A DNA stretch of 32,000 nucleotides, from assembly GCA_022646745.1 (NCBI GenBank), contig CP060262.1, positions 3,720,001 through 3,752,000 of the forward strand, read 5' to 3'. Below the pieces are notes generated by a model. That model made no database searches. It saw only the letters and a list, made by a program, of their open reading frames with translations, and was not told where the DNA came from. Of this stretch, positions 13,915-32,000 are shown piece by piece. This stretch comes from Planctomycetales bacterium. GTDB lineage: Bacteria; 4484-113; JAFGCY01. How positions within the stretch are numbered: position 1 is the stretch's first letter; each line of letters opens with the position of its first letter. The position numbers and the translations under genes were made by a program.

Positions 13915-14094
13915 TGTTGATGGGGACTGCTCGGGGCTGGATGGCATCCGAGGATTATACAGTCGGCCCTCGCGCGATTGCCAACAATGGCAAACCGGCA
14001 TGTGAACAGGTCACGTTCCAACTGCTTAGGTGCCACAGCTGGCCAGCTGGACTGTGCAGAATTCAGCGTCAAATAAAGTATTTCACCTAACACC

Positions 14095-14116
14095 GATATG
14101 ATATATATGATATATT
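14095..14116. promoter_or_regulatory. AT-only tandem element in the divergent promoter region between the oxidoreductase gene and the por operon
   Basis: gatatgatatatatgatatatt contains TGATATAT twice and sits in an otherwise GC-rich genome. It lies 59-80 nt upstream of ATG 14175. A GAGGAG RBS is at 14163-14168. Confidence 0.3.
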
Positions 14117-14174
14117 CTCTATAAACGTCAGAACTGCTGAATCACAGTTTACGCCAGCGAATGAGGAGCAGTCT

Positions 14175-14744
14175 ATGAGAGAGTTGCGCATACATGGCCG
14201 CGGTGGCCAGGGCGCGGTGATAGCGTCCAAGGTCCTTGCGGTGGCGATATTCAAGGAGGGCCGCTGGGTCCAGTCCTTCCCTGCCTTCGGCGTGGAGCGG
14301 CGGGGTGCCCCCGTCACTGCCTTCCTGAGGGTGGCAGACAGCCCGGTACTCCTGCGCTGTGAGGTCACCACCCCGGATGACCTGATCGTGCTAGATCCGA
14401 CCCTGCTTGATGCAATTGACATCACCGCCGGGCTCAAGCCTGGCGGCAGCATCCTGATCAACTCAGCCGCCGCACCGGAGGCATACGCACATATCGGCCC
14501 CTATCGGATAGCGACGGTCGATGCCAGTGCGATCGCACTGAAGTACGGGCTCGGTTCACGCACGCAGCCGATCGTCAATACGGCGATCGTTGGCGCCTTC
14601 GCCGTATTCAGTGGCCTGGTCTCGCTTGACAAGGTCTGCGCTGCCATCGAGGACGAGGTCCCGCGGCATGCGGAGGAGAACGTCGCCGCCGCCCGCGAAG
14701 CTGCCGAGCTGGTCAGGATCGCACAGGAGGCCGCGCATGTCTGA
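14175..14744 (+). CDS. porG: 2-oxoacid (pyruvate-type):ferredoxin oxidoreductase gamma subunit
   Basis: MRELRIHGRGGQGAVIASKVLAVAIFKEG...FPAFGVERRGAPV is the PorG/VorG signature. Gene order is gamma-delta-alpha-beta. Substrate (pyruvate, ketoisovalerate or 2-oxoglutarate) cannot be called from sequence by eye. Confidence 0.9.
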   Translation: MRELRIHGRGGQGAVIASKVLAVAIFKEGRWVQSFPAFGVERRGAPVTAFLRVADSPVLLRCEVTTPDDLIVLDPTLLDAIDITAGLKPGGSILINSAAAPEAYAHIGPYRIATVDASAIALKYGLGSRTQPIVNTAIVGAFAVFSGLVSLDKVCAAIEDEVPRHAEENVAAAREAAELVRIAQEAAHV

Positions 14745-16497: not shown

Positions 16498-16507
16498 GGA
16501 GCAGGAG

Positions 16508-17668: not shown

Positions 17669-18570
17669 GCCAGACCATCATCAAGGACCGGATCCCCGAA
17701 AACGAACTGCTGATGGGCGGCCACCTGGCCTGCCCCGGCTGCGGCGGCGCGCTGGCAATGCGCCTCGTGCTGAAGGAGCTGGGCCCGAAGACCATCGTGG
17801 TGCTGCCGGCCTGCTGCTGGAGCATCATCGCCGGGCCCTACCCGCAAAGCTCGCTCAAGGTGCCGCTGTACCACACGGCCTTCGAGACCGGGGCCGCAGT
17901 GGCCTCCGGCATCCGCGCCGCCCTCGACATCCAGGGCCAGCACGACACGAACGTGATCGTCTGGGCCGGTGACGGCGGCACTTTCGACATCGGCCTGCAG
18001 GCCCTGTCCGGCGCGGCCGAGCGCAATGAGGACTTCATCTACTGCTGCTATGACAACGAGGCTTACATGAACACCGGCATCCAGCGCTCCTCGGCAACGC
18101 CCTGGGGCGCCTGGACCACCACCACGCCATCGAAGCACCCGCAGGCCACTGACAAGAAGGACATCCTCGCGATCATGGCGGCGCACCGCATCCCCTACGC
18201 GGCCACCGCCTCCGTGTCCTACCCCGTTGACCTCGTTGACAAGGTGAAAAAGGCGATGTCCATCCGCGGCACCCGCTTCCTGCATATCCTCGCCCCCTGC
18301 CCGCCGGGCTGGAAGTTCGAGGACGAGCGCGCCATCGACATGGGCCGCATGGCGGTGCAGTCACGGGTCTTCCCGCTGGTGGAGGTGGAGCACGGCACTG
18401 ACTGGCGCTTCACGATGGACCCGGAGCATGTGCCGGTGCAGGACTACATCCGTGCCCAGGGCCGCTTCCGCCACCTGACGGATGAGCAGATCGGACATAT
18501 CTCGGATGCAGTGGATTACCGCTATGAGCACCTCAGGGATCTGGCGGAAAGGAGCCAGGCAAAGGTCTAG
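17665..18570 (+). CDS. porB: 2-oxoacid:ferredoxin oxidoreductase beta subunit (TPP-binding)
   Basis: Motifs GHLACPGCGG, GDGGTFDIGLQALSGAAERNED and YDNEAYMNTGIQRSSATP are present. The start overlaps the porA stop in an ATGA arrangement. Confidence 0.9.
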   Translation: MSQTIIKDRIPENELLMGGHLACPGCGGALAMRLVLKELGPKTIVVLPACCWSIIAGPYPQSSLKVPLYHTAFETGAAVASGIRAALDIQGQHDTNVIVWAGDGGTFDIGLQALSGAAERNEDFIYCCYDNEAYMNTGIQRSSATPWGAWTTTTPSKHPQATDKKDILAIMAAHRIPYAATASVSYPVDLVDKVKKAMSIRGTRFLHILAPCPPGWKFEDERAIDMGRMAVQSRVFPLVEVEHGTDWRFTMDPEHVPVQDYIRAQGRFRHLTDEQIGHISDAVDYRYEHLRDLAERSQAKV

Positions 18571-18661
18571 TCCCGCTCGACAAAATGTGCAACTAGGCCT
18601 GCGGGATGCCAACCGGAGTCTGTGCCAGTATGATTCCGCTCAAGGAATCAGGGAGCTTAGG

Positions 18662-20356
18662 ATGGCAGGATTGGACTATCACGATTCCAGCAGTGGTATC
18701 GACAGGCGACAGTGGATCAGCTTGGCGTTATTGCCGCTGCTTGCAATTGCACTGGTTTACCTGACCGGAGGCAGTCGCGTTCCGGCAGCTGCCATGTTGC
18801 AGGACAATCCGCCACCACCAGCAAACCGCTCCCCGGTTGCCAGGCTATCCGCTTCCGCTGCGTCAGGCTCCATACCACTTGAGGTCAGTTTTGACGGCTC
18901 CACCAGCGAGGACCCCGACGGTGGCGCACTCAGCTTTGATTGGGACCTCGATGGTGATGGTGTGTTTGAGGTCATTGGCGGAACTCCAGTTGTCACCCAC
19001 ACCTTCACTGAAGCCGGGATATTCACGGTCACCCTGCGGGTCACTGACAACATGCAATGGCAAGACATGGCATCAGTATCGGTCAAGGCCCTTGATGGCC
19101 AGACACCATCCTTCTTCAACCTGCTGGCACCAACACTGGCACCCGTGCAGATGCAGAAGCTGGATGCTCCAGTCGCGGAAATCGGCAGCTTCGAGGAACG
19201 TTACCCGATCTTCAGTGACAGCTGCGATGAGTATTCACTGGCCATCATCCAGAATCTGCCAACGATCTGCTTCTCCCGCAAGGAAGCAGATGGAACACAC
19301 AGCCTGTACTACATGGCGGCAAAGGACAGTCACGGCCTGTCCTGGAACTACCCCCACCAGATCTACAACGATGGATCAGGCAGTTCAGTGCTTCGCTTGC
19401 CCCGGCTGATTGAGGTTTCCGGCACAGCGGCAATCGCATTTCATGGCTACAACAAGTCCAGCGCATCCACCGGAATTGTCTATTTGAGATGCCTCGATCT
19501 GACCGGCAGCGCCTGGCTCTCCCCTGTCTCAGTAGCGGATTCCATTGTTGGGGTCAATTCATTGGAGTTCCTGATTGTGAACGGTAAACCAGCGCTTGCA
19601 TACATTGAAGCACCACATACAGCAAAGGCTGACGGCAAGCTGTATTACGAGCAGGCAGTGGATAAACTTGGCAAGGACTGGTCCCGTGATTCGCAGAAAC
19701 TGGATCAGTGGGCAAACGTCATTTCGTTATCTGTCGTGGGAGGAAAACCGGCAATAGCATTTGTCGGAAAGCGGCTGATAAAGCCCGAAACGACATGGAC
19801 TGCCGCCGAGTTCAGTCCTCCGGAAACTTTCTACATGACTGCAAACGACCCAGACGGGCTGCTCAACTGGAACCTGCCCATCACCGTCAGCAAGGATGTT
19901 TCCTATCCGGACAATGTGGAAAATGACATCGAACTGATGGAGATCGATGGCATGCCCGCCATCTCGTGGTTTGGAGGAGTTGACCCATCGACCTCCAACG
20001 GCAGGGTCGGAGCGGCATTCTACGTATTTTCCGGATGGCAATGGGTCGGTACAGGGTCGACTCCATCTGACAACGGTTTGTCGATAATGGGAATTGACCT
20101 GGCCATGGTTGGGGACACTCCATGCCTGTCCATCCTGCGCACCCACGGGCTGTCCTTGCAGTCTTCCAGCGATCACAGCGGAACTTTCTGGCAAGCAGCC
20201 CGGCAGGTTAGTCCAGATCCTCGTGCGAAATTCTTGGGGAATACAGTTTATTGGAAAAAGGACAATATCCAGTTGATTGAAGTTGATGGCAGGCCGGCCA
20301 TGCTGACGAGGCACGGCAACGGTGCCCTGATGTACATCGTCCAGATGAAGCCCTAG
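18662..20356 (+). CDS. Membrane-anchored or secreted protein with a PKD domain and beta-propeller-like repeats; paralog of the left-edge gene
   Basis: The track start 18482 lies inside porB. ATG 18662 has GGGAG 6 nt upstream. A hydrophobic anchor reads WISLALLPLLAIALVYL. The PKD domain includes EVSFDGSTSEDPDGGALSFDWDLDGDGVFE...FTVTLRVTDN. It is followed by repeats SGTAAIAFHG, NGKPALAYIE, GGKPAIAFVG, DGMPAISWFG and DGRPAMLTRHG, interleaved with D..G..W motifs that resemble Asp boxes. Confidence 0.75.
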   Translation: MAGLDYHDSSSGIDRRQWISLALLPLLAIALVYLTGGSRVPAAAMLQDNPPPPANRSPVARLSASAASGSIPLEVSFDGSTSEDPDGGALSFDWDLDGDGVFEVIGGTPVVTHTFTEAGIFTVTLRVTDNMQWQDMASVSVKALDGQTPSFFNLLAPTLAPVQMQKLDAPVAEIGSFEERYPIFSDSCDEYSLAIIQNLPTICFSRKEADGTHSLYYMAAKDSHGLSWNYPHQIYNDGSGSSVLRLPRLIEVSGTAAIAFHGYNKSSASTGIVYLRCLDLTGSAWLSPVSVADSIVGVNSLEFLIVNGKPALAYIEAPHTAKADGKLYYEQAVDKLGKDWSRDSQKLDQWANVISLSVVGGKPAIAFVGKRLIKPETTWTAAEFSPPETFYMTANDPDGLLNWNLPITVSKDVSYPDNVENDIELMEIDGMPAISWFGGVDPSTSNGRVGAAFYVFSGWQWVGTGSTPSDNGLSIMGIDLAMVGDTPCLSILRTHGLSLQSSSDHSGTFWQAARQVSPDPRAKFLGNTVYWKKDNIQLIEVDGRPAMLTRHGNGALMYIVQMKP

Positions 20357-20449
20357 GAATGGGAGCTCAGGCAATTTGGCGGTGCTAGCCGCTGCAAATG
20401 CCAGCCGGTTAAGTCCGCATAATGAGATGAAAATCGCTGGATTTGCAGT

Positions 20450-20477
20450 TTGATCTATAGTGATTCGACTGTAAAAT
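20450..20477 (+). promoter_or_regulatory. Sigma70-like promoter candidate for the Cys-rich protein gene
   Basis: TTGATC (20450-20455), a 16-nt spacer, then TAAAAT (20472-20477). The predicted transcription start falls inside the palindrome at 20482-20497. Confidence 0.4.
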
Positions 20478-20481
20478 TACC

Positions 20482-20497
20482 GTGGATAACTATCCAC
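20482..20497. promoter_or_regulatory. Perfect 7-2-7 palindrome, operator candidate; each half resembles a DnaA box
   Basis: The sequence is gtggata-ac-tatccac. In context, cGTGGATAA and cTATCCACA each match the DnaA-box consensus TGTGGATAA/TTATCCACA at 8 of 9 positions. It lies immediately downstream of the -10 candidate. Confidence 0.4.
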
Positions 20498-20530
20498 AGA
20501 TCCAGAACCAAGTTTGTTGTGAGGGATATC

Positions 20531-21136
20531 GTGAGGAAAACACTTTCAATTTGGGTGCTGCTGTGCCTGTTGGCCCTCGGGTCGGCGGCCAGCGCAGCGG
20601 AGCAGATTGACCTGAACTGCGTCAAGATGCCGCGCTGCTGCACCATCTCCTGCGTCAAGATCGACCTCGAGTGCTGTGGCTGCTACGGCGCCAGCGGCGC
20701 CCTGTGGGCCGAATTCCTCGACCGCAGCGGCAACGTGCTCGGCACGGCCACCTTCAACGGCAACTGGTGCCGTTGCGAGACCACTGCCACACTCGACAAC
20801 CCGGTCAACTCCAGCGAGGTCTGCAGCGTGCGCCTCGTCAAGGAGGATGACAGCGTCATCGTGACCTGGGGTTCCCTGCGCGTGTTCTGCGAGGGCAATT
20901 GCGACTGCGGCAAGTGGAAGATGGCCTGGAAGGGCGACCTGTGGTGCTGGGAGCCCGTGCCCGAGCCGGTGATGGATGAGCCCGTCGCCGTCGTGCCGCC
21001 GGCCCCGGTGAAGAAGCCTGCCCCGCCGGTCGTGGCGAAGAAGCCCGAGCCGAAGCATGACTTCTCCTACTTCCCGCCGCAGAAGGAAGAGGAGCCCCAG
21101 GACGAGGAAGTGATCGTCGTCATCGGTAACGGCTAA
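20531..21136 (+). CDS. Small secreted cysteine-rich protein with a Pro/Lys-rich acidic tail (unknown function)
   Basis: GTG 20531 is preceded by GAGGGA, and the product begins VRKTLSIWVLLCLLALGSAASAAE, a signal peptide. The mature region has 14 Cys in CC, CxC and CxxC patterns (RCCTISC, ECCGCYG, WCRC, CEGNCDCGKW, WCW). The tail reads PEPVMDEPVAVVPPAPVKKPAPPVVAKKPEPK. The track TTG start at 20450 coincides with the promoter candidate. Confidence 0.65.
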   Translation: MRKTLSIWVLLCLLALGSAASAAEQIDLNCVKMPRCCTISCVKIDLECCGCYGASGALWAEFLDRSGNVLGTATFNGNWCRCETTATLDNPVNSSEVCSVRLVKEDDSVIVTWGSLRVFCEGNCDCGKWKMAWKGDLWCWEPVPEPVMDEPVAVVPPAPVKKPAPPVVAKKPEPKHDFSYFPPQKEEEPQDEEVIVVIGNG

Positions 21137-21164
21137 GCCTTACCAAGCTCAACCAGAAACAAGG

Positions 21165-21201
21165 AGGCCTGCCCTGGAAGTCCAGTGGCAGGCCTTTTTT
21201 T
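21165..21201 (+). terminator. Strong rho-independent terminator between convergent genes; marks the compositional boundary
   Basis: The stem aggcctgccctgg / ccag-t-ggcaggcct has 13 bp with one bulge and an aagt loop. It is followed by a run of 7 T. Confidence 0.85.
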
Positions 21202-21243
21202 GTACGTGGTTGTCTGGAAGATGTGATTGCTACATGCGGACAA

Positions 21244-21990
21244 TCAACCGGCAATGGTCAATAAGTGCGTGATTCTCTTCGTTCTGTACTTCATTAGTCG
21301 AGATAAATTGTCCTTCCAGTTGTCAACCAGAACTGGTTCATTCCAATTCAGTTCAGAGTACCAACTTGGAACCAGATCACTGCGGAATCCTGATCTGCCG
21401 TTTAATGATTCTTCGCCATATAGATCAATGTATCGCTGGAAAAATGCGGCTTTTATATTGTCCGAGTTATCAGTAGGCCTGACGGTTCCTTTAGGCAATA
21501 AAACCACATTGCACGCACATGTAAAGTCTCCATTGGGAACAAGGTCCACGTTAATACTGGAGAAATATCTTTGCTCAAGTACAAGCTCACTTTGCTTATG
21601 TGAGAAAACGTGAGCTAACTCAAACTCACATAATCCAGTTGACTTCCATTTTGGTCCACTGTAAGCGCTTCCATATTCCAGGTAGCACCAGATATGCCTT
21701 GGAAATGTGTTGTCGTCAATGATCGCTCTAAATTGTGGATTGTATGATTTTCGTTTTCCCTGGCCACTGACGTATCTTTTTACTCCCGGGAACACACATG
21801 TTGACCCTTGAAACAGATAGCTATCCAAATCAATCTTATCTTTGAACAACTCAGCGAAATATTCCCGCTCAGCCGCATTCTGATCTGCTATTCTTTGGGC
21901 AATCTTCGGGTGGATATGATATGCGAGTGATGCAAGGATTTTACATATTCCAAGCTCATGCTCAAATATTTTATTATGTGCAATTTGCAT
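21244..21990 (-). CDS. Hypothetical protein (248 aa) with a weak HNH_2/His-Me-finger-like motif
   Basis: This is a long ORF in very AT-rich DNA. The segment CEFELAHVFSHK...NVVLLPKGTVRPTD loosely resembles the 'C..leaAHI.p ... NgllL...H..FD' pattern of HNH_2 nucleases, but the second His is absent. No signal peptide is present. Confidence 0.55.
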   Translation of the reverse strand: MQIAHNKIFEHELGICKILASLAYHIHPKIAQRIADQNAAEREYFAELFKDKIDLDSYLFQGSTCVFPGVKRYVSGQGKRKSYNPQFRAIIDDNTFPRHIWCYLEYGSAYSGPKWKSTGLCEFELAHVFSHKQSELVLEQRYFSSINVDLVPNGDFTCACNVVLLPKGTVRPTDNSDNIKAAFFQRYIDLYGEESLNGRSGFRSDLVPSWYSELNWNEPVLVDNWKDNLSRLMKYRTKRITHLLTIAG

Positions 21991-22144
21991 TATTAACTGT
22001 AACTATCAGTAACATCCTGCACATACATTGGTGGAGGGAACGTGGGCTATGGGTAGAGCATGCGCAGCGCTCCCGAGATCCAGCCGTGATACCCTGAAAG
22101 CCGTAGTCAACATTCCAACAGAAACTTCAAGGTGGTGAACAAAG

Positions 22145-22303
22145 ATGGCAAGAGGAAAGAAGTTTGATCTGAGCGCTCTTCCGATCAGGGTCGTCTACTC
22201 GGATGAACCCATGCGGGAAGAAGCCCTGCGTGATGCAATGCTTGCCTTGATGACGAGCTGGGACAACTGCAAGTCTGACATGCGAATTGATGATGATAAC
22301 TAA
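22145..22303 (+). CDS. Possible small ORF (52 aa), unknown function
   Basis: Translation is MARGKKFDLSALPIRVVYSDEPMREEALRDAMLALMTSWDNCKSDMRIDDDN. AAGGTGGTGA lies ~8 nt upstream, and an in-frame TGA sits just upstream of the ATG. The ORF is below the track's length cut-off and I recognise no homology. Confidence 0.2.
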   Translation: MARGKKFDLSALPIRVVYSDEPMREEALRDAMLALMTSWDNCKSDMRIDDDN

Positions 22304-22465
22304 TTTTGGATTCGTTCAAGACATTACTGAAAATGGATTCTGACTGTGCATGTACTTGACCTGCTCGATCAAACGGGTACGAATATATTTTCGCGATGGG
22401 CATACATCAGAATGCCGTATGAAAATTCGGCTGTAACTTCCAGTATTTGCCTTTTTGCTTGGTAA

Positions 22466-24964
22466 CTACAGAACATTCACCTTAAATTCGTGCGCTGCGA
22501 ATTCCTCATAGGGATTGTCCAAGTACAGTGTGATCGTCACATTCGATCCAGAAGGAGCAGTGATATCTACAGTTGGAGACTGCAATGATGAGTCACTCGT
22601 CGTTCCGAGCGTGCCAAAGTCCCATAACCACGTGGTAGGAATGCCATGTTTCATGGCAAATGAGAACTTCACACCTACAGCGTCAGGTGCAACGAGCGTT
22701 GGACTGACGGCTAGTACTTCCATAGACATTACGTCAATGCTGTATTCCGCTGTATCTGTATTCGCAGGATTACTGGCCTGATAGGCTGTCACGCTCAGAT
22801 CAGACCATCTACCCACTTGAGTGGCTGTGGCAGTCCGCGATCCGCCGTTTTCCGAACCCGGAAAGAATGCTTCGGGAATGTTCCATTCGTAAATGACATC
22901 AGGCGGAGGACTGCCGATTAGCACTGCCTTTATTTCAAATTGCTCGTTCGTGCCGATTTCGATTCCCGCAATCGGAGCCAGCTGGATTAGATTCTCCGCC
23001 GGGTCAATCTGCAAGGAGAAATAGAGGATAGATTCAGAATCTTCGATCAGTGGATCGCTGACAGTTACGGAGCAGGTATAGGGAACCGCCCTGGACTTTC
23101 CAAGGACAATAGTAGGAACCCGCAAGGCGCTTGTAGTCGGCGTGGCCGCTGCAGTTTCTCCATCCTGGAAGTTCCAGAGGTAGCTAAGTCGAGCCGGATC
23201 TGCATACGGACCAGCTCCATCCAAAGTCAGCACTGACACTCCAAGTGTAGCTTCGCTTCCTTCAGTTCCCAAAGCTCCTGTTACTGCGCCAAGACTGAAG
23301 TCAGGTTCATCTGAAGGCTCTGCAGTGATTGTCAATGCGAACACCTTACTCTGCTTCAGACCGGACTGCAGCGGATCGGACACCTCCACGCTGCAGATGT
23401 AGGGCGATTGTGAAGCTGAACCAAGAATTACCGTCGGACCTGCTGCTGAACTCGTTGCCGGAGTTGCCGCTGATGGCCCTTCGCCGGTCTTGAAATTCCA
23501 GCTGTATGTCAGATTCTGCAGATCTGGATAAGACAAACCGGTTTCGGAGTCCAGTATCTCAATAGTCAGTGTGGAAGCGTTGTTCTCGAGACCGGAAGTA
23601 CCCAGAACCTCGCCTAGTTTGAATTCCGATTGGCCAGGCAGAATATCAACAAAAAATTCATAGGAGGCCGGATCAGCACCCTGCTCTCCCGCAAACGAAA
23701 CGCCCAAGCTGACCGGAAACTTACCCGGCTTCACGAGGGATACGAGCGGTTCGGAAGCCTGGCTGCTTTCTGGGGAGACGCCATTCCCGAGAGTCCAGCT
23801 GAACTCCAGCTGCTCCAGAGGAATTGGTATTCCGGCACCGTCACTCACCATAGGCACCAGGCGGAGTATTTGACCAACCCGGCCTTGCAGTTCAAAATCC
23901 TGCAAGGGCTGCAAATTTGATCCGTCAAGTCCGTATTCCAACCCATCTATCTGCAGATCAGGATTGACGCGGAAAGTGAAATCATGACGGACAGCGGTCT
24001 CTTCCGCATGATTCAAAGTGAACACCCGCACGCTTCCCGGAAGCAGTAGATCCGATGCTCCCCCCAGCTGAACCAGGGGCTTTGCAGCGCCGGGTTCATC
24101 AGACGTTCCAATATTGCCAAAATCCCATTCATATCCATAGATAGATGGGTCCGCCGTATCCTGAAGCTCTAGTGAAAACTGAACCTCGCTTCCGGCTTTA
24201 CCCGCTTGCGGAGAAACCGATAGCGGGACAGGAGATTCCGGAATGAGCTGCAAAAAATTGCTCTGGTAATTGGTGTTATCAGGAAGTGCGATAGGAGTGA
24301 CACTAACATTCACCATGTAGGACTGCTTTGAAGTATCCAGGAATGTAACTACAGGATTGGCAAGTTTACTCGTACGAAAAATTGGACCTTCAGGGCTCTC
24401 GCCTTCCCTAATAGTCCATTCGAACTTGTAATCTTTCTCTGAATGTCCCGATGGTTCCAGTTCCACGGAAAAAGCAACCGGTCTTCCATATGAATCGGAA
24501 TCCCAGCTAATCTCTCCGAGACTGAAACTAAAGGGCAAGACTTCATACGTGAATTCGTACGTCTGTTCGGGCGGACTATCCCCGCTGCCCTGACGGATCC
24601 GCAGAGTCCCACTGAATTCCTCCTTGGAGTCAACATGGGCAAGCACCATCTCCGGTTCCTTTGCCGTACTGTACCTTTCCAAAGTACCGCCCTTGTCGTC
24701 TTTGGCCCAAAAGTCCCACAGGAACTCGGCAGGTGTTTTTTCGTCGCGGAACACAGCCTGGTATCTGAAGCTGGCTGTCTCTCCCGAAAACGAGCTGGCC
24801 TCGTTGACAACAGCGAGCGTATCCGGCAGATGCTGCCTGTCATTCTGCAGGTCGCGCACTGACCCACAGGACGAAGCAGTCGCGGCTATAACGCTGCACA
24901 GTAGGATTCCGCAGAAACGTTGGATGTTCCTGCAATCAGTCAGGAAAATTGCGGCGCTATTCAT
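22466..24964 (-). CDS. Predicted lipoprotein (832 aa) built from ~8 tandem PKD/Ig-like modules
   Basis: The track start 25084 lies inside the secretin gene. ATG 24964 overlaps the secretin stop by 8 nt (ATGAATAG). The N-terminus MNSAAIFLTDCRNIQRFCGILLCSVIAATASSCGS is a signal peptide with a lipobox-like Cys. Eight aromatic-x-W-[DNT]-[FIL] motifs occur (FLWDF, FEWTI, YEWDF, FSWTL, YSWNF, YLWNF, YEWNI, WLWDF), roughly one per 90-110 aa. Confidence 0.8.
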   Translation of the reverse strand: MNSAAIFLTDCRNIQRFCGILLCSVIAATASSCGSVRDLQNDRQHLPDTLAVVNEASSFSGETASFRYQAVFRDEKTPAEFLWDFWAKDDKGGTLERYSTAKEPEMVLAHVDSKEEFSGTLRIRQGSGDSPPEQTYEFTYEVLPFSFSLGEISWDSDSYGRPVAFSVELEPSGHSEKDYKFEWTIREGESPEGPIFRTSKLANPVVTFLDTSKQSYMVNVSVTPIALPDNTNYQSNFLQLIPESPVPLSVSPQAGKAGSEVQFSLELQDTADPSIYGYEWDFGNIGTSDEPGAAKPLVQLGGASDLLLPGSVRVFTLNHAEETAVRHDFTFRVNPDLQIDGLEYGLDGSNLQPLQDFELQGRVGQILRLVPMVSDGAGIPIPLEQLEFSWTLGNGVSPESSQASEPLVSLVKPGKFPVSLGVSFAGEQGADPASYEFFVDILPGQSEFKLGEVLGTSGLENNASTLTIEILDSETGLSYPDLQNLTYSWNFKTGEGPSAATPATSSAAGPTVILGSASQSPYICSVEVSDPLQSGLKQSKVFALTITAEPSDEPDFSLGAVTGALGTEGSEATLGVSVLTLDGAGPYADPARLSYLWNFQDGETAAATPTTSALRVPTIVLGKSRAVPYTCSVTVSDPLIEDSESILYFSLQIDPAENLIQLAPIAGIEIGTNEQFEIKAVLIGSPPPDVIYEWNIPEAFFPGSENGGSRTATATQVGRWSDLSVTAYQASNPANTDTAEYSIDVMSMEVLAVSPTLVAPDAVGVKFSFAMKHGIPTTWLWDFGTLGTTSDSSLQSPTVDITAPSGSNVTITLYLDNPYEEFAAHEFKVNVL

Positions 24965-27263
24965 CGAGGATCTCCGGGATGACAATGATATAGATTTCGC
25001 TGCGTTCCTTGACAATGGAGCGCTTGCGGAACAGCTTCTTAACGATCGGCATGTCGCCCAGCAGCGGGACTTTGTCGACATCAATCTGATCCTTCTCGCT
25101 GATCATGCCGGCAAGCACAAAGGGCTCTCCGTCACGCACGTTGACAATCGTCTTCAGGCTGCGGCGCAGGTAGCGCGGAGGATTGAAGGAAGTCCCTCCG
25201 ATCGTTGTGTCATTCACAAGTGTGGTGACTTCAGGCAGGACTGCGATTGTCAGCAGGTCGTCTCCGCTTATGATTGGCTTGAAGCGAAGCGTAACCCCGA
25301 TGTTCAGGTAACTGACATTGTCTGTCACCTTTGTCGTATTGTTGTTCAAATACTCTTCGGACTGAATATAAGGCACCCTGTCTATTGCGCTGTAAACAGC
25401 TTCGAAGTTCTCGATAGTGCTCAGGTCCGGTTCGGCAAGTAATGTGATTTCACCATCACGAATCAGTGTGTCAAGGCTGGCACTGAAGTTGAGACCGTTA
25501 TCCCTGGTGTAACCCTCAATTGAGTCAGTCTCATAACGATTGTTCTTGCCAAGAAACTCAGTAAATGTTGTTGCAATGCTATCTGAGGTGATATCCATGC
25601 CGAGCTGTTTCCGAGCCCGTTCACTGAATTCACAAACCCGGACTTTGAGTTTGATTCCCCTCGGCCTGCGGTCCAGGCCACGAATGATCTGCATTACACG
25701 GCTCAGGGACTCTTCACTTGGAGCTGTGACCACTATGGAATTCTGTGATATCAGGATGTTCTTCTTGCTAGCATCGTCCGGATTGAAGAAATCGCCAAAC
25801 ATATTTACTTGGGACTCCGGAAGATTCTTTTCAGCAGGTGAAATTCGTTTCTCCAGTTCTGAATTGTCAAGATTGCTAGCTTTGGTCTTTGGCTTATCTG
25901 CTGTTTCCCCGTTTTCTGGAATAGTCCCTGATTCGGGAGTTCCGTTTGCTGGAGGTGCTGCGCCTTCTTGCTTAGTACCATTATCTCCTCCACTTCCAGT
26001 TGGATTTGCATTTCCAGGTGCTCCCGCAATATTATTGTTTCCTTTGCCCGGGTTCTCTTCTCCACTAATCAGCTTAAGTAATTTTTCAATACACATTCCG
26101 AAAGACGGATCAAGCTTGCTATTTATCTTTTCAAGTTGCTTGGAGATTTCTGCTAATTCCGTAGAGAAAGTCTCAATTTCTTTAGGCAAGTCATCATAAT
26201 TCTCAATCATTGTCACTCTAAGCCATTTCAATTCACTCTTTAGCTCAACTAGATTAATTTTATCTAAATCAGCGAGTAGCTTTTTCAAATTTGCAACATC
26301 AACATTCAGCTTCTTGGTTTCCGCATTGGCTTCCTTGAGGGACTTTATCAGTCCAGGAATTTCAGAAATCTCAACCGAGACAATTCCTTTACTCTTTCCA
26401 TTGACAATACTATAGGAATTGCCGGACTGATCCATCATCAGTACCCCTTCAAATTCCTCGGAATAGGCAGGGGCAATATTCGTCAGCCACTGCAGCGCCA
26501 TCTTGCTTGTGATGAAATGCAGATCCACCCTGCCAACCGCCGGTCTGTCCCTCTCGTATTCTTGTAACTTTCCTTCCTTGTCCAGCTTTGGCATATGCAG
26601 GTTTCTCTGCATGTTGCCAATATCGACCACGGCGCTCGTTTGCTGAGGCACACCAATCCGTGGCATGCGTAACATGTATAGAAAGCCACCACCAGGCTTC
26701 TGCTGGTTGCCCTCAACTTCCACAATGCTGACGCCCAGCCGGTTGAGGTCGGTTGAATCAACGAAGCTGATCAACAGGCCATTGCCAAAACCCTTACGGT
26801 AGCAGGGTAATACTTCCCGGGCCAGACTACAACATTGCCGACACCCACAGGTATCACCGGGAAAGCCCTGGCATCTGTGACAGGAATCAGAGCTGCCATA
26901 GACACCACAGCTGCAGGGAGCATCCGTGCAACGACAGGTCAATAAGCCTGCCTGGAAATCAAGATCCTTCGAATGTACAAAGAGGCAATTGGAAAACTTC
27001 CATTTCTCAATCTGCCAATGCACTCGCTGATCAGTGCTGATGAACAGCAGATCCGATCCGCATTGCGAACACGATTTAAGGCACTCGTCTCCGCGCATCG
27101 ACTCGGGATTGAAATCCAGGCATGCTTCGCATTCCGAACAACTGCCAGATGAATCACATGTACTGTAATAGCCCATGACAGTTGAAGCTTCGGCTGCAAT
27201 CAGGAATGCAGGCTGTACCAGTAACGCAATCAACATCAGGCATAGAAAACTAGCTTTCCTCAT
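24957..27263 (-). CDS. Secretin-family outer-membrane channel (GspD/PilQ-like C-terminal domain) with an atypical Cys-rich, coiled-coil and disordered N-terminal region
   Basis: The signal peptide is MRKASFLCLMLIALLVQPAFLIAAEAS. About 130 aa follow with ~30 Cys (CSECEAC, CLKSCSQC, CRCTDAPCSCG, CHRCQGFPGDTCGCRQCC). Next comes a heptad-like region (LKEANAETKKLNVDVANLKKLLADLDKINLVELKSELKWL) and a G/N/P/T-rich linker. A secretin N-type domain follows (IVVTAPSEESLSRVMQIIRGLDRRPRGIKLKVRVCEF). The canonical secretin core ends VNVRDGEPFVLAGMISEKDQIDVDKVPLLGDMPIVKKLFRKRS...EIYIIVIPEIL. Confidence 0.85.
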   Translation of the reverse strand: MRKASFLCLMLIALLVQPAFLIAAEASTVMGYYSTCDSSGSCSECEACLDFNPESMRGDECLKSCSQCGSDLLFISTDQRVHWQIEKWKFSNCLFVHSKDLDFQAGLLTCRCTDAPCSCGVYGSSDSCHRCQGFPGDTCGCRQCCSLAREVLPCYRKGFGNGLLISFVDSTDLNRLGVSIVEVEGNQQKPGGGFLYMLRMPRIGVPQQTSAVVDIGNMQRNLHMPKLDKEGKLQEYERDRPAVGRVDLHFITSKMALQWLTNIAPAYSEEFEGVLMMDQSGNSYSIVNGKSKGIVSVEISEIPGLIKSLKEANAETKKLNVDVANLKKLLADLDKINLVELKSELKWLRVTMIENYDDLPKEIETFSTELAEISKQLEKINSKLDPSFGMCIEKLLKLISGEENPGKGNNNIAGAPGNANPTGSGGDNGTKQEGAAPPANGTPESGTIPENGETADKPKTKASNLDNSELEKRISPAEKNLPESQVNMFGDFFNPDDASKKNILISQNSIVVTAPSEESLSRVMQIIRGLDRRPRGIKLKVRVCEFSERARKQLGMDITSDSIATTFTEFLGKNNRYETDSIEGYTRDNGLNFSASLDTLIRDGEITLLAEPDLSTIENFEAVYSAIDRVPYIQSEEYLNNNTTKVTDNVSYLNIGVTLRFKPIISGDDLLTIAVLPEVTTLVNDTTIGGTSFNPPRYLRRSLKTIVNVRDGEPFVLAGMISEKDQIDVDKVPLLGDMPIVKKLFRKRSIVKERSEIYIIVIPEILDE

Positions 27264-27301
27264 CCAGCACCTCTCTGAAATGACAAGCCAATCTTATGGC
27301 T

Positions 27302-27336
27302 GGCAATTCAAGATGATGTTAGGCAATTCTCAAGAT
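27302..27336. promoter_or_regulatory. Direct repeat pair in the secretin upstream region; candidate response-regulator site
   Basis: ggcaattcaagat (27302-27314) and ggcaattctcaagat (27322-27336) start 20 nt apart, about two helical turns. They lie 39-73 nt upstream of the secretin ATG at 27263. Confidence 0.35.
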
Positions 27337-27344
27337 TAAATCAA
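27316..27344 (-). promoter_or_regulatory. Sigma70-like promoter candidate for the secretin / PKD-lipoprotein pair
   Basis: On the minus strand: TTGATT (27344-27339), a 17-nt spacer, then TAACAT (27321-27316). A GAGAGG RBS lies 7 nt before the ATG. The direct repeats overlap the spacer and the predicted transcription start. Confidence 0.3.
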
Positions 27345-27448
27345 GTCTTTTTCGTGATGTTGACAACAAGCCAATAAACCAGGGGAATACTTATGCAATT
27401 TTGATAATGTTTCACGGAGAAAAACAAGTGTGGATTCAAGCGCTTAAC

Positions 27449-28495
27449 TTAAGCACTCGGCAGTTCTACAATGAATGTGCTGCCAACAGCGACAGCGCTT
27501 TCCAGCCTGACACTGCCACCAAGCTGTTTGACAACGCTGTGCACCTTGCTAAGTCCGAGGCCCGCCCCCTGGTAATCTCCCGCGCGAGCGGCGCTTGCCC
27601 GGAAGAAGCGTTCGAAGATGCGCGGCTGCTCATCTGCCGGGATTCCGATTCCGCTGTCGTGTACAGACAACAAGACTGAACTTTCTGCAAGGTCCAGACT
27701 GACATGTACTTCTCCACCATGCGGTGAGTACTTGATCGCATTGTCAATGAGGTTGTAAATCACTTCATGCAGCGCAGGCTTATTTGCAAAGACCCTGGGC
27801 AGAACATCCACAACTGTAAGTTGAAGCTTTACATCTGACTTTGCTGCGCTTTCACGCCGGCTGTCAATGACATCCTCAGTAATCTGTCTGATATCAGTGG
27901 CCTCCAGCGGATCCGGGAATCCTGCTCTATCCAACCGGGAGAGGAAAAACAGATCGTTGATGGTGCGATTCAAACTGCCCGTCAGTCGCATGATGTTCCC
28001 GAGGTATTCATCTGTCTTACCCTGGCCGTCAGGCATAGCAATCTGAAGGGTTTCGGCATAACCCCTGATACTGGCAAGTGGCGTCTTCATTGAATGTGCC
28101 AGGCTGTCAATCAGTTGCCAATGCTCCTCGTCTTGCCTGCGTCGCTCAGCTCTGTCAAGGTGAATCAACAAAACACCTCCCTCAAGACCCAACACCAGAC
28201 TATCTAGGAATTGTGTGGCCACCGATCCATCAATCTCTATACGTTCACCAGCTGCAGGCATATTTAGTAGAACATGCTCAATGGAAGTCGACCGCAAGGA
28301 TGGCAGCATCTCAAGGAATTGGAGCGGAAACTTCGGCTCCGACAGCAGTGAATGCAGCTGGCGGAATTCCATGTTGGCATTCAATGCGAGACACTCTGAG
28401 CTCAGCAGGCATGCAGGATGCTTCAGGGCGGAACAGAGATCCAGCATGGCTTCGCCATGTAGTTGAACGCTCTTACTGTGCGAGTAAGGTAGCAC
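27449..28495 (-). CDS. Soluble (no TM segment) sensor histidine kinase, HisKA + HATPase_c
   Basis: The H-box is LAHSMKTPLASIRGYAETL and the N-box is NLIDNAIKYSPHGG. G1 is DSGIGIP..FERFFR and G2 is GAGLGLSKV. The ~130-aa N-terminal region has no hydrophobic helices. The start is either GTG 28495 or ATG 28447. Confidence 0.85.
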   Translation of the reverse strand: MLPYSHSKSVQLHGEAMLDLCSALKHPACLLSSECLALNANMEFRQLHSLLSEPKFPLQFLEMLPSLRSTSIEHVLLNMPAAGERIEIDGSVATQFLDSLVLGLEGGVLLIHLDRAERRRQDEEHWQLIDSLAHSMKTPLASIRGYAETLQIAMPDGQGKTDEYLGNIMRLTGSLNRTINDLFFLSRLDRAGFPDPLEATDIRQITEDVIDSRRESAAKSDVKLQLTVVDVLPRVFANKPALHEVIYNLIDNAIKYSPHGGEVHVSLDLAESSVLLSVHDSGIGIPADEQPRIFERFFRASAARAGDYQGAGLGLSKVHSVVKQLGGSVRLESAVAVGSTFIVELPSA

Positions 28496-28509
28496 TAATG
28501 AACAGCATA

Positions 28510-29211
28510 TCAGGCATCACCGCCCGATCCATCGAAGCGATATCCCACACCCCACTTGGTGCGGATGAACCTTCGGGCAGTACCCAGTGCCTGGCGAATG
28601 GAGCTGATGTGCACATCTATGTTGTGCGTATCTACATAAACATCATCACCAATCGCCAGATTGATCAACTGGTCACGAGTAAAAACCCGACCATCATGCT
28701 CTGCTAGGGTTTGCAGCAAGCGGAACTGTGTGGCGGTCAGGTTTATGGGAATCCCGTGAACCGTTACTTCATGCCCCAGCGTGTCAATACTGAGCTCCTC
28801 GAAGCAAAGCTGGCTACCCTTTTCCATTCCACGACTCATCCTTCGTTGAAGGGCCCGTACACGGGCAACCATTTCCCTTACACCAAATGGCTTGGTCATG
28901 TAGTCATCTGCACCAAGTTCAAGGCCACTGACTACGTCCGCCTCCTCTCCGCGGGAGGAAATTATCATAACTGGCACATTGGCCGTCTTACGACTGGCCC
29001 GCATGGCACGGCATACATCCAGGCCCTGCATGCCTGGCAACATGAGATCCAGCAGCAGCATATCCGGTGGAGACGCAAGAACTCGTTCGAGACCCTGAGT
29101 TCCATCACGGTCATGCGTGACACTGTACCCGGAATTGCTGAGATTCTCCGTGAGAATCTCCACCAGGTCGGCATCGTCTTCGATTATGTGGATTGATGCG
29201 GGAGGTGTCAT
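28510..29211 (-). CDS. OmpR/PhoB-family response regulator
   Basis: ATG 29211 is preceded by AGGA; the track start 29409 over-extends into the S8 gene. Receiver residues are present (IIEDD, LLLDLMLPG, IISSRG, YMTKPF). The winged-helix C-terminus includes LTATQFRLL...VDVHISSIRQAL...IRTKWGVGYRF. Confidence 0.9.
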   Translation of the reverse strand: MTPPASIHIIEDDADLVEILTENLSNSGYSVTHDRDGTQGLERVLASPPDMLLLDLMLPGMQGLDVCRAMRASRKTANVPVMIISSRGEEADVVSGLELGADDYMTKPFGVREMVARVRALQRRMSRGMEKGSQLCFEELSIDTLGHEVTVHGIPINLTATQFRLLQTLAEHDGRVFTRDQLINLAIGDDVYVDTHNIDVHISSIRQALGTARRFIRTKWGVGYRFDGSGGDA

Positions 29212-29236
29212 GAGGTTTTCCTGAGCTTGTAAGCAA

Positions 29237-30721
29237 TCATCTTCTACATAGGACCTTGATTGGCTTGTTAAAAAGGGAATACTTGCTTTCCGTACCAAGA
29301 TTCCTTTCCCTGGCGATACTATCGACAACAGACAGACCATTGCTTTTGATACTCCAGAAGTTGTTTGCAAGGCAACCAGCAAGGATTGGTGCAGCAAAAC
29401 TGGTGCCACTTTCTATCTTCAACTCACCATTCTTATCAATTGTGGGAACTCTTTCTCCTGGAGCATATACCTTCACATTATCAGACCTGTTTGAGCTGAC
29501 TGAAACATCAAGGAAAATTCCATTTTCTGACAGCTTGCCACAAAGGGAACCTACCGCAATCACTGAATCTTCCACACCCGGATACTGAATGGACGTTTCC
29601 GAACCGTCATTGCCTGCTGCTGCAACAATTGGCACCCCGATTGTGTCAAAGTACTTCAGAGTTCGTGCTAATCCAATATTCTTTCCCCCTTCATTCTCCC
29701 ATGTCGAAGTAATCACTACCATATTTACGGCATGGGCAGGTTCATCCTCCGTGCGATCTAGCAGGATAGATTCTATCGTAACAGGCTTCCGACCCAATAC
29801 AGAACAGAATGCCCTTAAAATGTCATCTGTGCTTGAATGTGCTCCTTCAGATATCTTGCACGGAAGAATCTTAGTCTTGTGGGATAACCCGATTCTCCTT
29901 TTGACGTGGTTGCAGCTGTATTCCCTTTGGCTGGCAATTAGTGAGGCAACCTGAGTTCCGTGACCGTGGTTGTCAATCGGCGGATCCCAGAACTTCGGTG
30001 GCACATGCCAGTTCAGTGTATGTGACCCAAGATACTGATTAACAGTTTGGAAATTATCTTGATAGATATCGGCTTCGCGCAGGTTTACCCCAGTCCCAAT
30101 TACGCCTATGATCACACAATCTTCTACTTCTGAATCATGCCGCATGCTGTCTTCACACGTACCCAGCATTTCGTACAACCAGCAATCTGAGGTAGAAAGG
30201 TCGCTGTCACCTGCCAGTGATTTTTCAGAAAAGGTTCTTACGGGCTGAGGATCCTGCCACGAGACTAACACTTGATTACGTAACTCCTTATCATTTGACA
30301 TGGACATCTGCCGCAACCATTCCGCAAAGTCACGCTCAGATGCAGGCTCACTATCTGCCGTACATAGAACCGTCACATGCACCAGGGCCGATTCCGCGAA
30401 GTCAAAATACTCAAAGTCAGCTGTACCAGTCTCGCCGATGTAGATCATATATGCTTCCAGCATCTGCACAAGCAGAACGCATATCCACTCCTGACCGATC
30501 GGTTCTCCGTTGGAATACTTTTCCACGAGCTTTACTGTCAAACTGTAAACTTTTTGGAAGATACGAACAAATTTGACGAGACGCTCATGAATTGAGGTTG
30601 TAGCATCATACTTTATGGAGTCTAGAATATTTCTGACGACAGCAATCTGTTCTTTGCTGACTTTGCCTTTATTCCGGACGAAATTGATTTCATATGTTCT
30701 TGTAACCCAATACATACTCAT
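29237..30721 (-). CDS. Cytoplasmic S8 subtilase-like protein with a ~200-aa N-terminal extra domain; catalytic Asp position occupied by Gly
   Basis: The His motif DNHGHGTQVAS, the oxyanion Asn in VAAAGNDG and the Ser motif ESGTSFAAPILAG are all present. The normally conserved (V/I)DTG motif reads VIGTGV, with the Gly codon GGG at 30095-30097. No signal peptide is present. The start is ATG 30721 or 30715 (AAGGA upstream). The track GTG start at 30808 overlaps the upstream gene. Confidence 0.8.
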   Translation of the reverse strand: MSMYWVTRTYEINFVRNKGKVSKEQIAVVRNILDSIKYDATTSIHERLVKFVRIFQKVYSLTVKLVEKYSNGEPIGQEWICVLLVQMLEAYMIYIGETGTADFEYFDFAESALVHVTVLCTADSEPASERDFAEWLRQMSMSNDKELRNQVLVSWQDPQPVRTFSEKSLAGDSDLSTSDCWLYEMLGTCEDSMRHDSEVEDCVIIGVIGTGVNLREADIYQDNFQTVNQYLGSHTLNWHVPPKFWDPPIDNHGHGTQVASLIASQREYSCNHVKRRIGLSHKTKILPCKISEGAHSSTDDILRAFCSVLGRKPVTIESILLDRTEDEPAHAVNMVVITSTWENEGGKNIGLARTLKYFDTIGVPIVAAAGNDGSETSIQYPGVEDSVIAVGSLCGKLSENGIFLDVSVSSNRSDNVKVYAPGERVPTIDKNGELKIESGTSFAAPILAGCLANNFWSIKSNGLSVVDSIARERNLGTESKYSLFNKPIKVLCRR

Positions 30722-30735
30722 TCCTTTGGAATAAA

Positions 30736-31479
30736 CTACGGGCAGGTCCACTCGATACGACACTGATTCGGGCTGCTTAAATCGTAATACGGTTTGTCGT
30801 CTTCCCACTCCGGATCACTATGAGCGTGACCAACAGCTTTGTACGAATTAATGACTTCGTCTTCCAGATATTTTTCTTCCCCACAAGTGAAATCGAGCGA
30901 ACTGCTAATGGAATTCTTCCACAGCCTATCTTTTTCGTCCATAACATAAAACGTCACTTCATAAGGGAATGTCCTTCTGATACAGGGTGTTGAGGGGGTG
31001 CAGATTGCGCATGTGTATGCCTGCCCCGTGCTGAAAGGATCGTGCTTACTAGTTGTTTTGAACCAGGGATATGATCCATCAGTGGGCTTCGGAAGCAGTT
31101 TACCCACAGGGTTTTCTTTTGCATTGACGGGTATAAGCCTGATCTCTGTCAGCACATTATCAATCTGCCCGGAAGAATTCACTGTAAAACGGATTGAGTC
31201 CTTTAGTTCATTAAGTCTTGCCATGAATGCAAACCGGACAAGAACACTGCTGTCATCTTTCACCATAGGTATCACTTTTGCCTGTGGAGTGGATTTTGCA
31301 ATCAGTGTTTCCCTCTCATTGTTCGCATAGTGATGTATTATCACGTTGTAGTGCAAATCTCCGGAAAGTGAGGAATCAAGACCAGCATAATCATTGTCAT
31401 ACAGGTATCGGCAATGACTCATACCATTGTCCGAAGCGAACACTTGAAGTTTCTGATTTGGAATCGATACGATTGTCAT
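30736..31479 (-). CDS. Hypothetical protein (247 aa), no recognisable motif; encoded directly upstream of the S8-like gene
   Basis: The ORF has AAGGAG 6 nt upstream of ATG 31479. It starts 16 nt after the TPR gene stop and ends 14 nt before the S8 start. No signal peptide, TM segment or Walker motif is present. The sequence looks beta-rich, and the C-terminal part has 6 Cys. Confidence 0.7.
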   Translation of the reverse strand: MTIVSIPNQKLQVFASDNGMSHCRYLYDNDYAGLDSSLSGDLHYNVIIHHYANNERETLIAKSTPQAKVIPMVKDDSSVLVRFAFMARLNELKDSIRFTVNSSGQIDNVLTEIRLIPVNAKENPVGKLLPKPTDGSYPWFKTTSKHDPFSTGQAYTCAICTPSTPCIRRTFPYEVTFYVMDEKDRLWKNSISSSLDFTCGEEKYLEDEVINSYKAVGHAHSDPEWEDDKPYYDLSSPNQCRIEWTCP

Positions 31480-31495
31480 GCAATTCTCCTTAGCT

Positions 31496-32000
31496 CTAAT
31501 ATATCGGAGACTCTTTATCCACGGAATTCCGCTGAGCCTGATTGACTTTTAAATCAGTGAGTTGTCTGTGAAAGTCTAGATCTACCGGTCTTCCCAGGGC
31601 CTCATACAGGGCATCAGCTCTGGCCTGGGAATCCTGCCTGCCATGTTCGTCTCCGGCCCGTTGATGAGCCATTGCCAGCATCACGATTGACCGGCCCTCG
31701 AAGATGTGCTCACCCAGTTCATTGAACAGCTCCGCAGATTGACGCAGTTCGTTGATTGCCAGTCCATGCCGCCTATCAGCTGACAATGCCCAGCCTCGTA
31801 CCTGCAGCAGGTAGGCAAACTCCGTAGGATGCTCCTCGCGATCACAACCTGCTCCCAGCAGCTGCAGTTCCTGCTGCGCTGCTTCGGCCTGACCTTCTTC
31901 CAGCAGCATTACTGCCAGATGTATTTTGACCTGATACATCATTCCCGGCAGGAGTCCCTGCTCCACCAGCCCGAGACATTCCGCATAGCGCGCACGGGCC
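31496..32000 (-). CDS. TPR-like helical-repeat protein, C-terminal part only (5' end beyond window)
   Basis: The frame stays open upstream of the track's GTG 31966 all the way to position 32000 (...ARARYAECLGLVEQGLLPGMMYQ...). The sequence has alanine-rich helix-pair repeats (AAQQELQLLGA..., FAYLLQVRGWAL..., AINELRQSAELFNELGE..., SIVMLAMAHQRAGD...). Confidence 0.6.
   Translation of the reverse strand, partial: ARARYAECLGLVEQGLLPGMMYQVKIHLAVMLLEEGQAEAAQQELQLLGAGCDREEHPTEFAYLLQVRGWALSADRRHGLAINELRQSAELFNELGEHIFEGRSIVMLAMAHQRAGDEHGRQDSQARADALYEALGRPVDLDFHRQLTDLKVNQAQRNSVDKESPIY

Follow-up and report, generated by a model that had tools for sequence, protein, structure and literature searches.

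The stretch analyzed here, 32,000 nucleotides (nt) of a Planctomycetales bacterium (contig CP060262.1 of assembly GCA_022646745.1, positions 3,720,001 to 3,752,000) and in the following called the window, encodes on its minus strand a protein with the subtilase fold of peptidase family S8 that carries Gly in place of the catalytic Asp. Its gene follows an orphan gene, and the two together are a compositionally distinct, hyperdivergent gene pair between conserved flanks. The pair belongs to a cassette of co-oriented genes, and its own features are as follows.

29224 to 31571: hyperdivergent block, comprising the last ~75 nt of a gene for a tetratricopeptide repeat (TPR) protein, the orphan gene and the S8 gene; guanine plus cytosine (GC) content 0.44-0.45 against 0.52-0.54 in the neighbours
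30736 to 31479, minus strand: orphan partner gene ("unk"), 247 amino acids (aa), found in the cassette only, with a Cys-rich C-terminal half, co-diverging with the S8 gene
31084 to 31113, minus strand: linear motif N-P-x-G-x-L-x-P-x-P, aa 123-132 of the orphan, invariant in an otherwise hypervariable protein
29237 to 30721, minus strand: S8 subtilase-fold gene, an N-terminal extension of ~204 aa and then the catalytic domain, according to open reading frame (ORF), Pfam, AlphaFold2 (AF2) and Foldseek
30122 to 30721, minus strand: N-terminal extension of the S8 protein, ~200 aa, mostly helical by prediction and without a Pfam or PDB match
30095 to 30097, minus strand: GGG, Gly209 on the column of Asp32 of subtilisin BPN' in several alignments; GGA at the equivalent column of the relative P0023
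29960 to 29962, minus strand: CAC, His254 (BPN' H64) in the motif HGHGT
29609 to 29611, minus strand: AAT, Asn371 (oxyanion-hole N155) in the motif AAAGNDG
29399 to 29401, minus strand: AGT, Ser441 (nucleophile S221) in the motif GTSFAAP

The ORF containing the S8 gene spans 29237 to 30808 on the minus strand and offers two nearby ATG starts. The ATG at 30721, with AAAGGA 2 nt upstream, yields 494 aa, and the ATG at 30715, at which the NCBI call of an identical database entry begins, yields 492 aa; all residue numbers given here are counted from 30721. An earlier reading, made from the sequence only, had described the product as a cytoplasmic S8 subtilase-like protein without the catalytic Asp. 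Its suggested alignment to PF00082 (Peptidase_S8) gave a significant match of 70.2 bits at a cut-off of 21.8 (E 2.4e-19). The AF2 model reached a predicted local distance difference test score (pLDDT) of 88-96 in the catalytic core, and the best Foldseek matches were pro-Tk-subtilisin, SUB1 and subtilisin E (E ~1e-14). By profile and by alpha/beta fold, the protein is therefore a member of family S8 at the fold level.

The domain of about 200 aa that the sequence-only reading had placed in front of the peptidase fold was recovered as well, being predicted mostly helical with moderate confidence (pLDDT 55-76). It matched nothing in the PDB or Pfam, including the prodomain family I9, and a weak match to VMAP-M8 (E 0.013) was taken as chance. 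The length of the extension is constant in all four S8 proteins of the cassette, with the beta1 motif beginning at aa 204-205, and its sequence is almost unalignable. A hidden Markov model (HMM) built from outgroup S8 sequences weakly aligned aa ~142-170 of the window protein (NDKELRNQVLVSWQDPQPV) to the C-terminal part of the usual prodomain region, which hints, at low posterior and without a Pfam I9 match, that the extension may end in a prodomain remnant. No hydrophobic N-terminal or transmembrane segment was detected, the maximum Kyte-Doolittle score over 19 residues being 1.43 (a heuristic, not SignalP). As far as this heuristic reaches, the earlier statement that a recognizable export signal is missing holds, but a cytoplasmic location is not proven by it. 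PopC of Myxococcus has a like layout and no signal peptide, yet it is periplasmic and secreted (PMC6434023), and a secretin is encoded three genes downstream of the S8 gene.

The central observation concerns the column of the catalytic Asp. The minus-strand codons GTG ATC ATA GGC GTA ATT GGG ACT GGG GTA AAC CTG translate to V-I-I-G-V-I-G-T-G-V-N-L, and the position of Gly209 relative to Asp32 of BPN' was tested by four independent alignments. With phmmer against sphericase, "iigvigtgvn" paired with "nIAVLDTGVN", placing Gly209 opposite Asp, and MAFFT with BPN' and the database matches put Gly209 on the same column. In an alignment of 117 S8 sequences, this column held Asp in 112, a gap in three fragments, and Gly only in the window protein and in its relative P0023. 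Lastly, the HMM of 113 outgroup S8 sequences aligned its "vvvAViDtGvdl" to "VIIGVIGTGVNL" at top posterior, again with Gly on Asp. His254, Asn371 and Ser441 fall on columns that are invariant in the 117-sequence alignment (Asn in 117 of 117), so that the oxyanion-hole Asn is in place, and of the Asp-His-Ser triad His and Ser are present with Gly at the Asp column. A misalignment hiding a real Asp is ruled out by the outgroup HMM together with the 117-sequence alignment.

The codon itself is supported at the level of assemblies. Six separately assembled metagenome samples were 100% identical to the window at the nucleotide level over 3.4-11.8 kb, the GGG codon included, and these assemblies, together with the Gly encoded by a different codon in P0023, rule out a sequencing error. 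Judged by the sequences compared, the Asp to Gly replacement is genuine and conserved. On the missing triad Asp, on the codon that replaces it and on the intact His, Asn and Ser motifs, the sequence-only reading was thus correct, and neither the profile alignment nor the comparison of homologs that it had proposed produced an Asp at this position in the window protein.

Relatives of the protein are very few. A word-indexed search of 5.8 billion clusters returned the window S8 itself and generic S8 proteins at 25-31% identity only, and an exhaustive phmmer search of 1.84 billion representatives added three proteins of like architecture, namely P0023 (E 6e-35), P0024 (6e-19) and P0025 (8e-16). 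In about 15 billion proteins searched, the architecture is shared by four lineages, including that of the window; phage and plasmid relatives were not found beyond generic S8 proteins. P0023, the only close relative at 29% identity, has Gly at the triad column (VAVIGTGICG), and Asp is kept in P0024 (IAVIDSGFD) and P0025 (IAILDSGFD), so that two proteins of each kind are available. The presence of Asp-bearing versions in the same operon slot suggests that the ancestral role was catalytic. Between the window S8 and P0023, the codons of the key residues have changed (Gly GGG/GGA, His CAC/CAT, Ser AGT/AGC), which shows that these residues are held at the amino-acid level, the Gly having been maintained by selection. 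A ratio of nonsynonymous to synonymous substitution rates (dN/dS) could not be computed within alleles, the copies of each allele being 100% identical, and between alleles synonymous sites are saturated.

With regard to the remaining active site, 34 columns are at least 80% conserved in the 113 outgroup S8 sequences, and the consensus residue is retained at 28 of them in the window protein, 24 in P0023, 22 in P0024 and 24 in P0025. D32 is the sole loss among these columns that is peculiar to the Gly-variants, and His, Asn and Ser are invariant in all four cassette proteins. The substrate-binding or "CHO" segment N123-x-S125-x-G127, whose role is taken from PMC11593635, is replaced by V-I-T-S-T in the window protein and by T-[SC]-T in the relatives, and the substrate-binding residues G100/G102 are likewise absent from all four.

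The four S8 genes occupy the same slot in a conserved cassette. A TPR_12 protein (524-575 aa), the orphan (240-262 aa), the S8 protein, an OmpR-type regulator (233 aa) and a histidine kinase (~347 aa) follow one another in all four loci, and in three of them (the window, L007 and L011) a secretin and then a PKD-domain protein come after the kinase. The contig of the fourth, L010, ends in an ORF of no assigned family after the kinase, with neither secretin nor PKD gene in view. The cassette family is defined by this gene order, by the beta1 motif of the S8 protein at aa 204-205 and by NPxGxLxPxP in the partner, all of which the window has. The stop codon of the S8 gene overlaps or almost abuts the start of the regulator gene across the loci. 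The flanking genes of the window are as follows.

31496 to 32000 and beyond the window end, minus strand: 3' part of the TPR_12 protein gene (575 aa; full length in L001, 328-2055)
28510 to 29211, minus strand: OmpR-type response regulator, 233 aa, starting 25 nt past the S8 stop, 96.6% identical to its ortholog in L007
27449 to 28495, minus strand: soluble histidine kinase (HisKA and HATPase_c, no transmembrane segment), 97% identical to its ortholog in L007
24957 to 27263, minus strand: secretin, 768 aa, with a signal peptide and a Cys-rich N-terminus
22466 to 24964, minus strand: PKD-domain protein, 832 aa as called, with a lipoprotein-like signal; the last conserved gene of the cassette

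Transmembrane segments and signal peptides were detected in none of the TPR, orphan, S8, regulator and kinase proteins. The repeats of the TPR protein resemble the peptide-binding TPRs of LGN/Pins, and it has no NTPase domain. The orphan matched neither Pfam at a weak threshold nor, as a profile, the PDB, and its AF2 model reached a pLDDT of 34; besides the linear motif, the family conserves a C-terminal Y...D..W. The cassette is as rare as its S8 protein. A TPR-profile search of 5.8 billion clusters returned these four loci only, the same search found no cassette in 185,579 species genomes (one spurious Streptomyces TPR match) or in JGI metagenome contigs, and a profile of the orphan protein led to no lineages beyond the known four.

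The comparison with L007, the syntenic locus of the nearest relative, delimits the hyperdivergent block. At the protein level, the two loci are 96.6% identical in the regulator, 97% in the kinase, 90% in the secretin, 89% in the PKD protein and 83% in the TPR protein, against 29% in the S8 protein and 27% in the orphan. The flanking DNA is ~91% identical, and between ~31571 and ~29224 no DNA similarity was detectable even when words of 7 nt were used. On the right, the block ends sharply 13 nt past the S8 stop, and identity is already 84% over the initial 150 nt of the regulator gene. On the left, the transition is gradual: DNA identity is 69-80% over the final ~600 nt of the TPR gene, and the identity of the TPR protein falls from 0.86-0.96 to 0.62-0.70 past alignment column 400, that is, over its C-terminal ~190 aa. 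In the comparisons of L010 with L011 and of the window with L011, the similarity gap likewise lies exactly over the orphan and S8 genes. Both genes are GC-poorer than their neighbours in all four loci, and their GC content at third codon positions is 0.32-0.33 against 0.52-0.54 in L007 and 0.51-0.52 against 0.72-0.84 in L010. Recombination-site repeats were absent from the block boundaries. The pair behaves as a co-diverging specificity module between a conserved TPR scaffold and a soluble two-component system, and it is possibly exchangeable. Neither this module nor the sharing of one slot by Asp and Gly versions in different lineages had been noticed in the sequence-only reading.

Several further observations were made in and around the cassette. 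GC content is 0.59-0.67 in positions 1-19000 of the window, which hold housekeeping genes (BipA at 9149-10990, 2-oxoacid:ferredoxin oxidoreductase at 16481-18570), and 0.45-0.53 in positions 19000-32000, which hold the PKD proteins and the cassette; from this contrast, the whole cassette lies in a low-GC island in which the orphan and S8 genes are lowest. A second PKD-domain protein of 624 aa (18482-20356, plus strand) marks the edge of the island, and an ORF of 1667 aa (4026-9029, plus strand) is located in the high-GC part. The secretin contains 22 Cys residues, its Cys-rich N-terminus being unusual, and around 26076 its gene has an internal low-complexity stretch rich in G/N/P/T, where DNA identity to L007 is 56%, against 87-98% elsewhere in the gene. 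In the TPR gene, a 40-nt stretch (L001 400-439, L011 7596-7635) is 95% identical in genes that otherwise share ~66-76% of their DNA; it encodes TEPTAVPVK(R/M)SRP near the TPR N-terminus, beyond the window end. In L011, this stretch lies upstream of the called TPR start and in frame with an earlier ATG, and the called start is probably wrong. Upstream of the cassette and outside the window, a divergently transcribed trio is conserved between the window organism (L002, 109-1827) and L007 (1564-3282), consisting of a haem-oxygenase-like (PF14518) protein, a FeeM-type N-acyl amino acid synthase and a cytochrome b5. The trio is absent from L010 and L011 and is possibly a small-molecule biosynthetic unit.

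How the Gly-variant works can be read in several ways. We tentatively prefer to regard it as a catalytically attenuated Ser-His enzyme that would act on one dedicated partner, since Asp and Gly versions share a slot and the Gly versions keep the remaining active site at least equally well. The S8 protein and the orphan would then be a co-evolving pair of enzyme and partner, the orphan being either substrate or inhibitor, and the pair would supply a specific input to a cytoplasmic circuit of TPR protein, kinase and regulator that controls the downstream secretin/PKD genes. The enzyme would be attenuated rather than dead, relying on a Ser441-His254 dyad and the oxyanion hole at Asn371, and the dyad may achieve a slow, essentially single-substrate cleavage of the partner or a tight, substrate-like binding. 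The obvious candidate site is the invariant NPxGxLxPxP linker of the partner, and the result may be read by the TPR protein, with its LGN/Pins-like repeats and a C-terminal third that co-diverges with the module. Residual catalysis of this kind would have a precedent in the work of Carter and Wells in 1988, in which subtilisin D32A reportedly lost ~10^4-fold in kcat and still remained far above the uncatalysed rate.

Two known systems resemble such an arrangement in part. PopC/PopD of Myxococcus xanthus was compared by architecture: PopC, a protein of ~50 kDa that lacks a signal peptide, has an N-terminal part without recognizable domains in front of a C-terminal subtilisin domain. It is complexed with and controlled by its partner PopD, acts in signalling on a single dedicated substrate and exits via an outer-membrane channel. 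It differs in being an active protease that is secreted through the TonB-dependent transporter Oar and not a secretin, and in that no hypervariability is reported (PMC6434023). Lantibiotic leader peptidases of the NisP/EpiP type, encoded with LanRK, likewise dedicate an S8 protein to one co-encoded precursor, with an OmpR-type regulator and a kinase adjacent, and EpiP (3qfh) as well as a lanthipeptide-activating protease (9ekq) were among the structural matches of the window protein. These peptidases, however, have full triads, usually signal peptides, and short peptides as substrates, whereas the window encodes no lanthipeptide synthetase or transporter and its partner has ~250 aa. The triad of PopC, too, is canonical as far as is known.

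A number of points weigh against an attenuated enzyme. Asp32 is present in all 112 full-length S8 sequences compared, and we know of no natural S8 protein that is active without it. No acidic residue occurs in the segments packed against the acid site (31-34, 64-65 and 123-125; PMC11593635). The absence of N123-x-S125-x-G127 and G100/G102 from all four proteins makes the cleft unusual even in the Asp-variants, and structural reasons can account for the conserved HGT, GN and GTS motifs. CspC/CspA of Clostridioides difficile stay inactive when their missing triad residues are put back (PMC7200643), so that an intact triad alone does not predict activity. Finally, the apparent ties of the S8 protein to the orphan, the TPR protein and the kinase consist of synteny and co-divergence, two Gly and two Asp sequences give no statistical power, and the orphan model has the low pLDDT given above.

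Nearly as likely as the attenuated enzyme is a binding-only pseudoprotease, in which the loss of Asp abolishes catalysis and the S8 fold only offers the partner, the TPR protein or the kinase a scaffold for binding or sensing, in the manner of CspC and CspA in the germination of C. difficile; the N-terminal extension would then probably stay uncleaved. The otherwise universal D32 and the non-canonical substrate-binding strand fit this explanation, no compensating acid is evident from the sequence, and Gly cannot accept the hydrogen bond of His N-delta1. D32 mutants of pro-subtilisin are not known to autoprocess. It is more difficult to reconcile with the retention of His, Ser and the oxyanion Asn in both Gly-variants over ~70% divergence and with codon turnover, with an S8 consensus retention equal to or above that of the Asp-variants, and with the Asp-bearing versions in the same operon slot, which suggest a catalytic ancestral role.

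S8 pseudoproteases are known as signal transducers (PMC7200643, PMC12880746), but the known ones lost His and Ser, not Asp (PMC7200643). The closest analogues are again CspC/CspA, which share with the window protein the S8 fold, an incomplete triad, the lack of a secretion signal and a retained N-terminal region; they are soluble signal transducers rather than bulk proteases, and members with intact and broken triads coexist (PMC7200643, PMC12880746). The Csp proteins, however, lost His and/or Ser and kept Asp, whereas the window protein lost Asp only. They have a classical prodomain and act in the spores of Firmicutes beside an active CspB, unlike the single S8 gene of the window with its helical extension of ~200 aa and its two-component/secretin context. 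The genes around the cassette are not sporulation genes, and the window record is labelled Planctomycetales. A specific sequence relationship to the Csp proteins is not apparent: no Csp structure was found among the PDB sequence matches or the top 50 fold matches of the window protein, with no direct comparison to Csp sequences made. The sequence-only reading had offered a pseudo-protease or a non-canonical catalysis, and both remain live.

A broader and rather unlikely proposal is that the orphan and the Asp-less S8 protein form an idiomorph-like "specificity cassette" of an undescribed cell-cell or self-recognition system. The S8 protein would process the orphan at or near the NPxGxLxPxP linker into a Cys-rich signal, and the secretin/PKD genes would assist in its export. 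The TPR protein would in turn sense this signal through its C-terminal repeats, which co-vary, and would gate the soluble kinase and the regulator. The agrBDCA locus of Staphylococcus and the comQXPA locus of Bacillus are polymorphic signal-production loci, with AgrB/ComQ as enzymes, short peptides as precursors and a co-varying sensor domain in the kinase. They are alike in a sharply bounded hypervariable segment over processing enzyme and precursor or partner, in a graded divergence into the adjacent recognition component, and in a near-identical response regulator next door. The analogy is purely structural, and it differs in that the kinase at the window locus is 97% identical and the C-terminus of the TPR protein co-varies instead. 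If the proposal is true, divergent alleles, kept or exchanged like agr/comQXP pherotypes, would define incompatible signalling groups, and the change from Asp to Gly could make catalysis need the carboxylate of the cognate partner, a natural case of partner-assisted catalysis enforcing specificity.

We consider it improbable that another carboxylate replaces Asp32 and completes a non-canonical triad. Candidates are the DD at aa 299-300, E198 in EVEDC, E317 in a family-specific insertion, and a residue provided in trans by the extension or the partner. Both Gly-variants carry an acid at each of the positions 198, 299, 300 and 317, neither Asp-variant does, and the Gly presumably leaves a cavity for a foreign side chain or anion. 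By subtilisin topology, however, a large distance separates His64 from position 198 (BPN' ~21) and from the insertion that follows helix C, and positions 299/300 (BPN' ~105/106) face the S4 side and not His N-delta1; the latter two are also acidic in 19-37% of ordinary S8 proteins, and a comparison of two against two sequences carries no statistical weight. The EVEDC segment, which the sequence-only reading had named as a possible source of the acid, did not withstand this comparison. Its acids precede the Gly by 8-11 residues and belong to the remote end of strand beta1 (BPN' ~21-24), from where they cannot reach His64 by topology, and only position 198 is acidic in both Gly-variants.

Even less probable is an anti-phage or conflict effector, that is, an intracellular S8 protein activated by a TPR sensor that cleaves a toxin precursor and diversifies in an arms race, as in IetAS or gasdermin-activating proteases. 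Hypervariability, low GC, rarity and the TPR neighbour would agree with such a role, as would a generic "subtilase" match in PADLOC (E 2.8e-13) and short IetS matches. IetS (IteS) of IetAS is indeed an intracellular S8-family protein from a small operon, but it differs from the window protein in length and architecture. The NCBIfam model NF042956 (IetS/IteS) scored 27.5 bits at a cut-off of 900 and covered aa 243-313 only, and the IetS model of PADLOC (E 9e-8) covered aa 425-464 only. No IetA ATPase stands beside the S8 gene in any of the four loci, nor do these contain a STAND NTPase, a gasdermin-like gene or another recognized effector gene. The neighbours have no PADLOC matches, there is translational coupling between the module and a two-component system, with a secretin after it, and there are no phage or plasmid relatives. 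Membership in IetS or another defence system was rejected for want of a full-length match and an adjacent IetA, and the analogy to conflict systems with an NTPase neighbour drawn in the sequence-only reading fails with it, the IetS models matching only ~30-70 residues around generic S8 motifs and no such genes lying nearby. An origin of the GGG codon in faulty sequencing or assembly, like an incipient decay of the gene, can practically be dismissed: nothing but the rarity of the substitution speaks for it, and against it stand the six identical independent assemblies, the Gly under another codon in P0023 (29% identical and assembled three times), and ORFs of ~500 codons that run uninterrupted in the four lineages and whose stop codons overlap the start of the regulator gene or lie close to it.

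The subtilase fold and subtilase pseudoenzymes as a concept are already known. Two things are new, and for neither was a description found: the conserved loss of Asp only, in a slot of the operon that Asp-bearing sister proteins also fill, and a module of two hyperdivergent genes in a cassette of four lineages. Subtilases are the textbook Asp-His-Ser family, and a natural loss of Asp alone offers a clean test case. It makes testable if a dyad of Ser and His is enough for regulatory cleavage of a dedicated kind, or by which route evolution arrives at a pseudoprotease from the "acid" side, with the Asp-bearing sister proteins in the same slot as built-in controls. In addition, a sharply bounded hyperdivergent pair within a ~91%-identical cassette is the signature of specificity-determining or conflict loci, and here it suggests that a soluble two-component system beside a secretin receives a regulatory input not described before.

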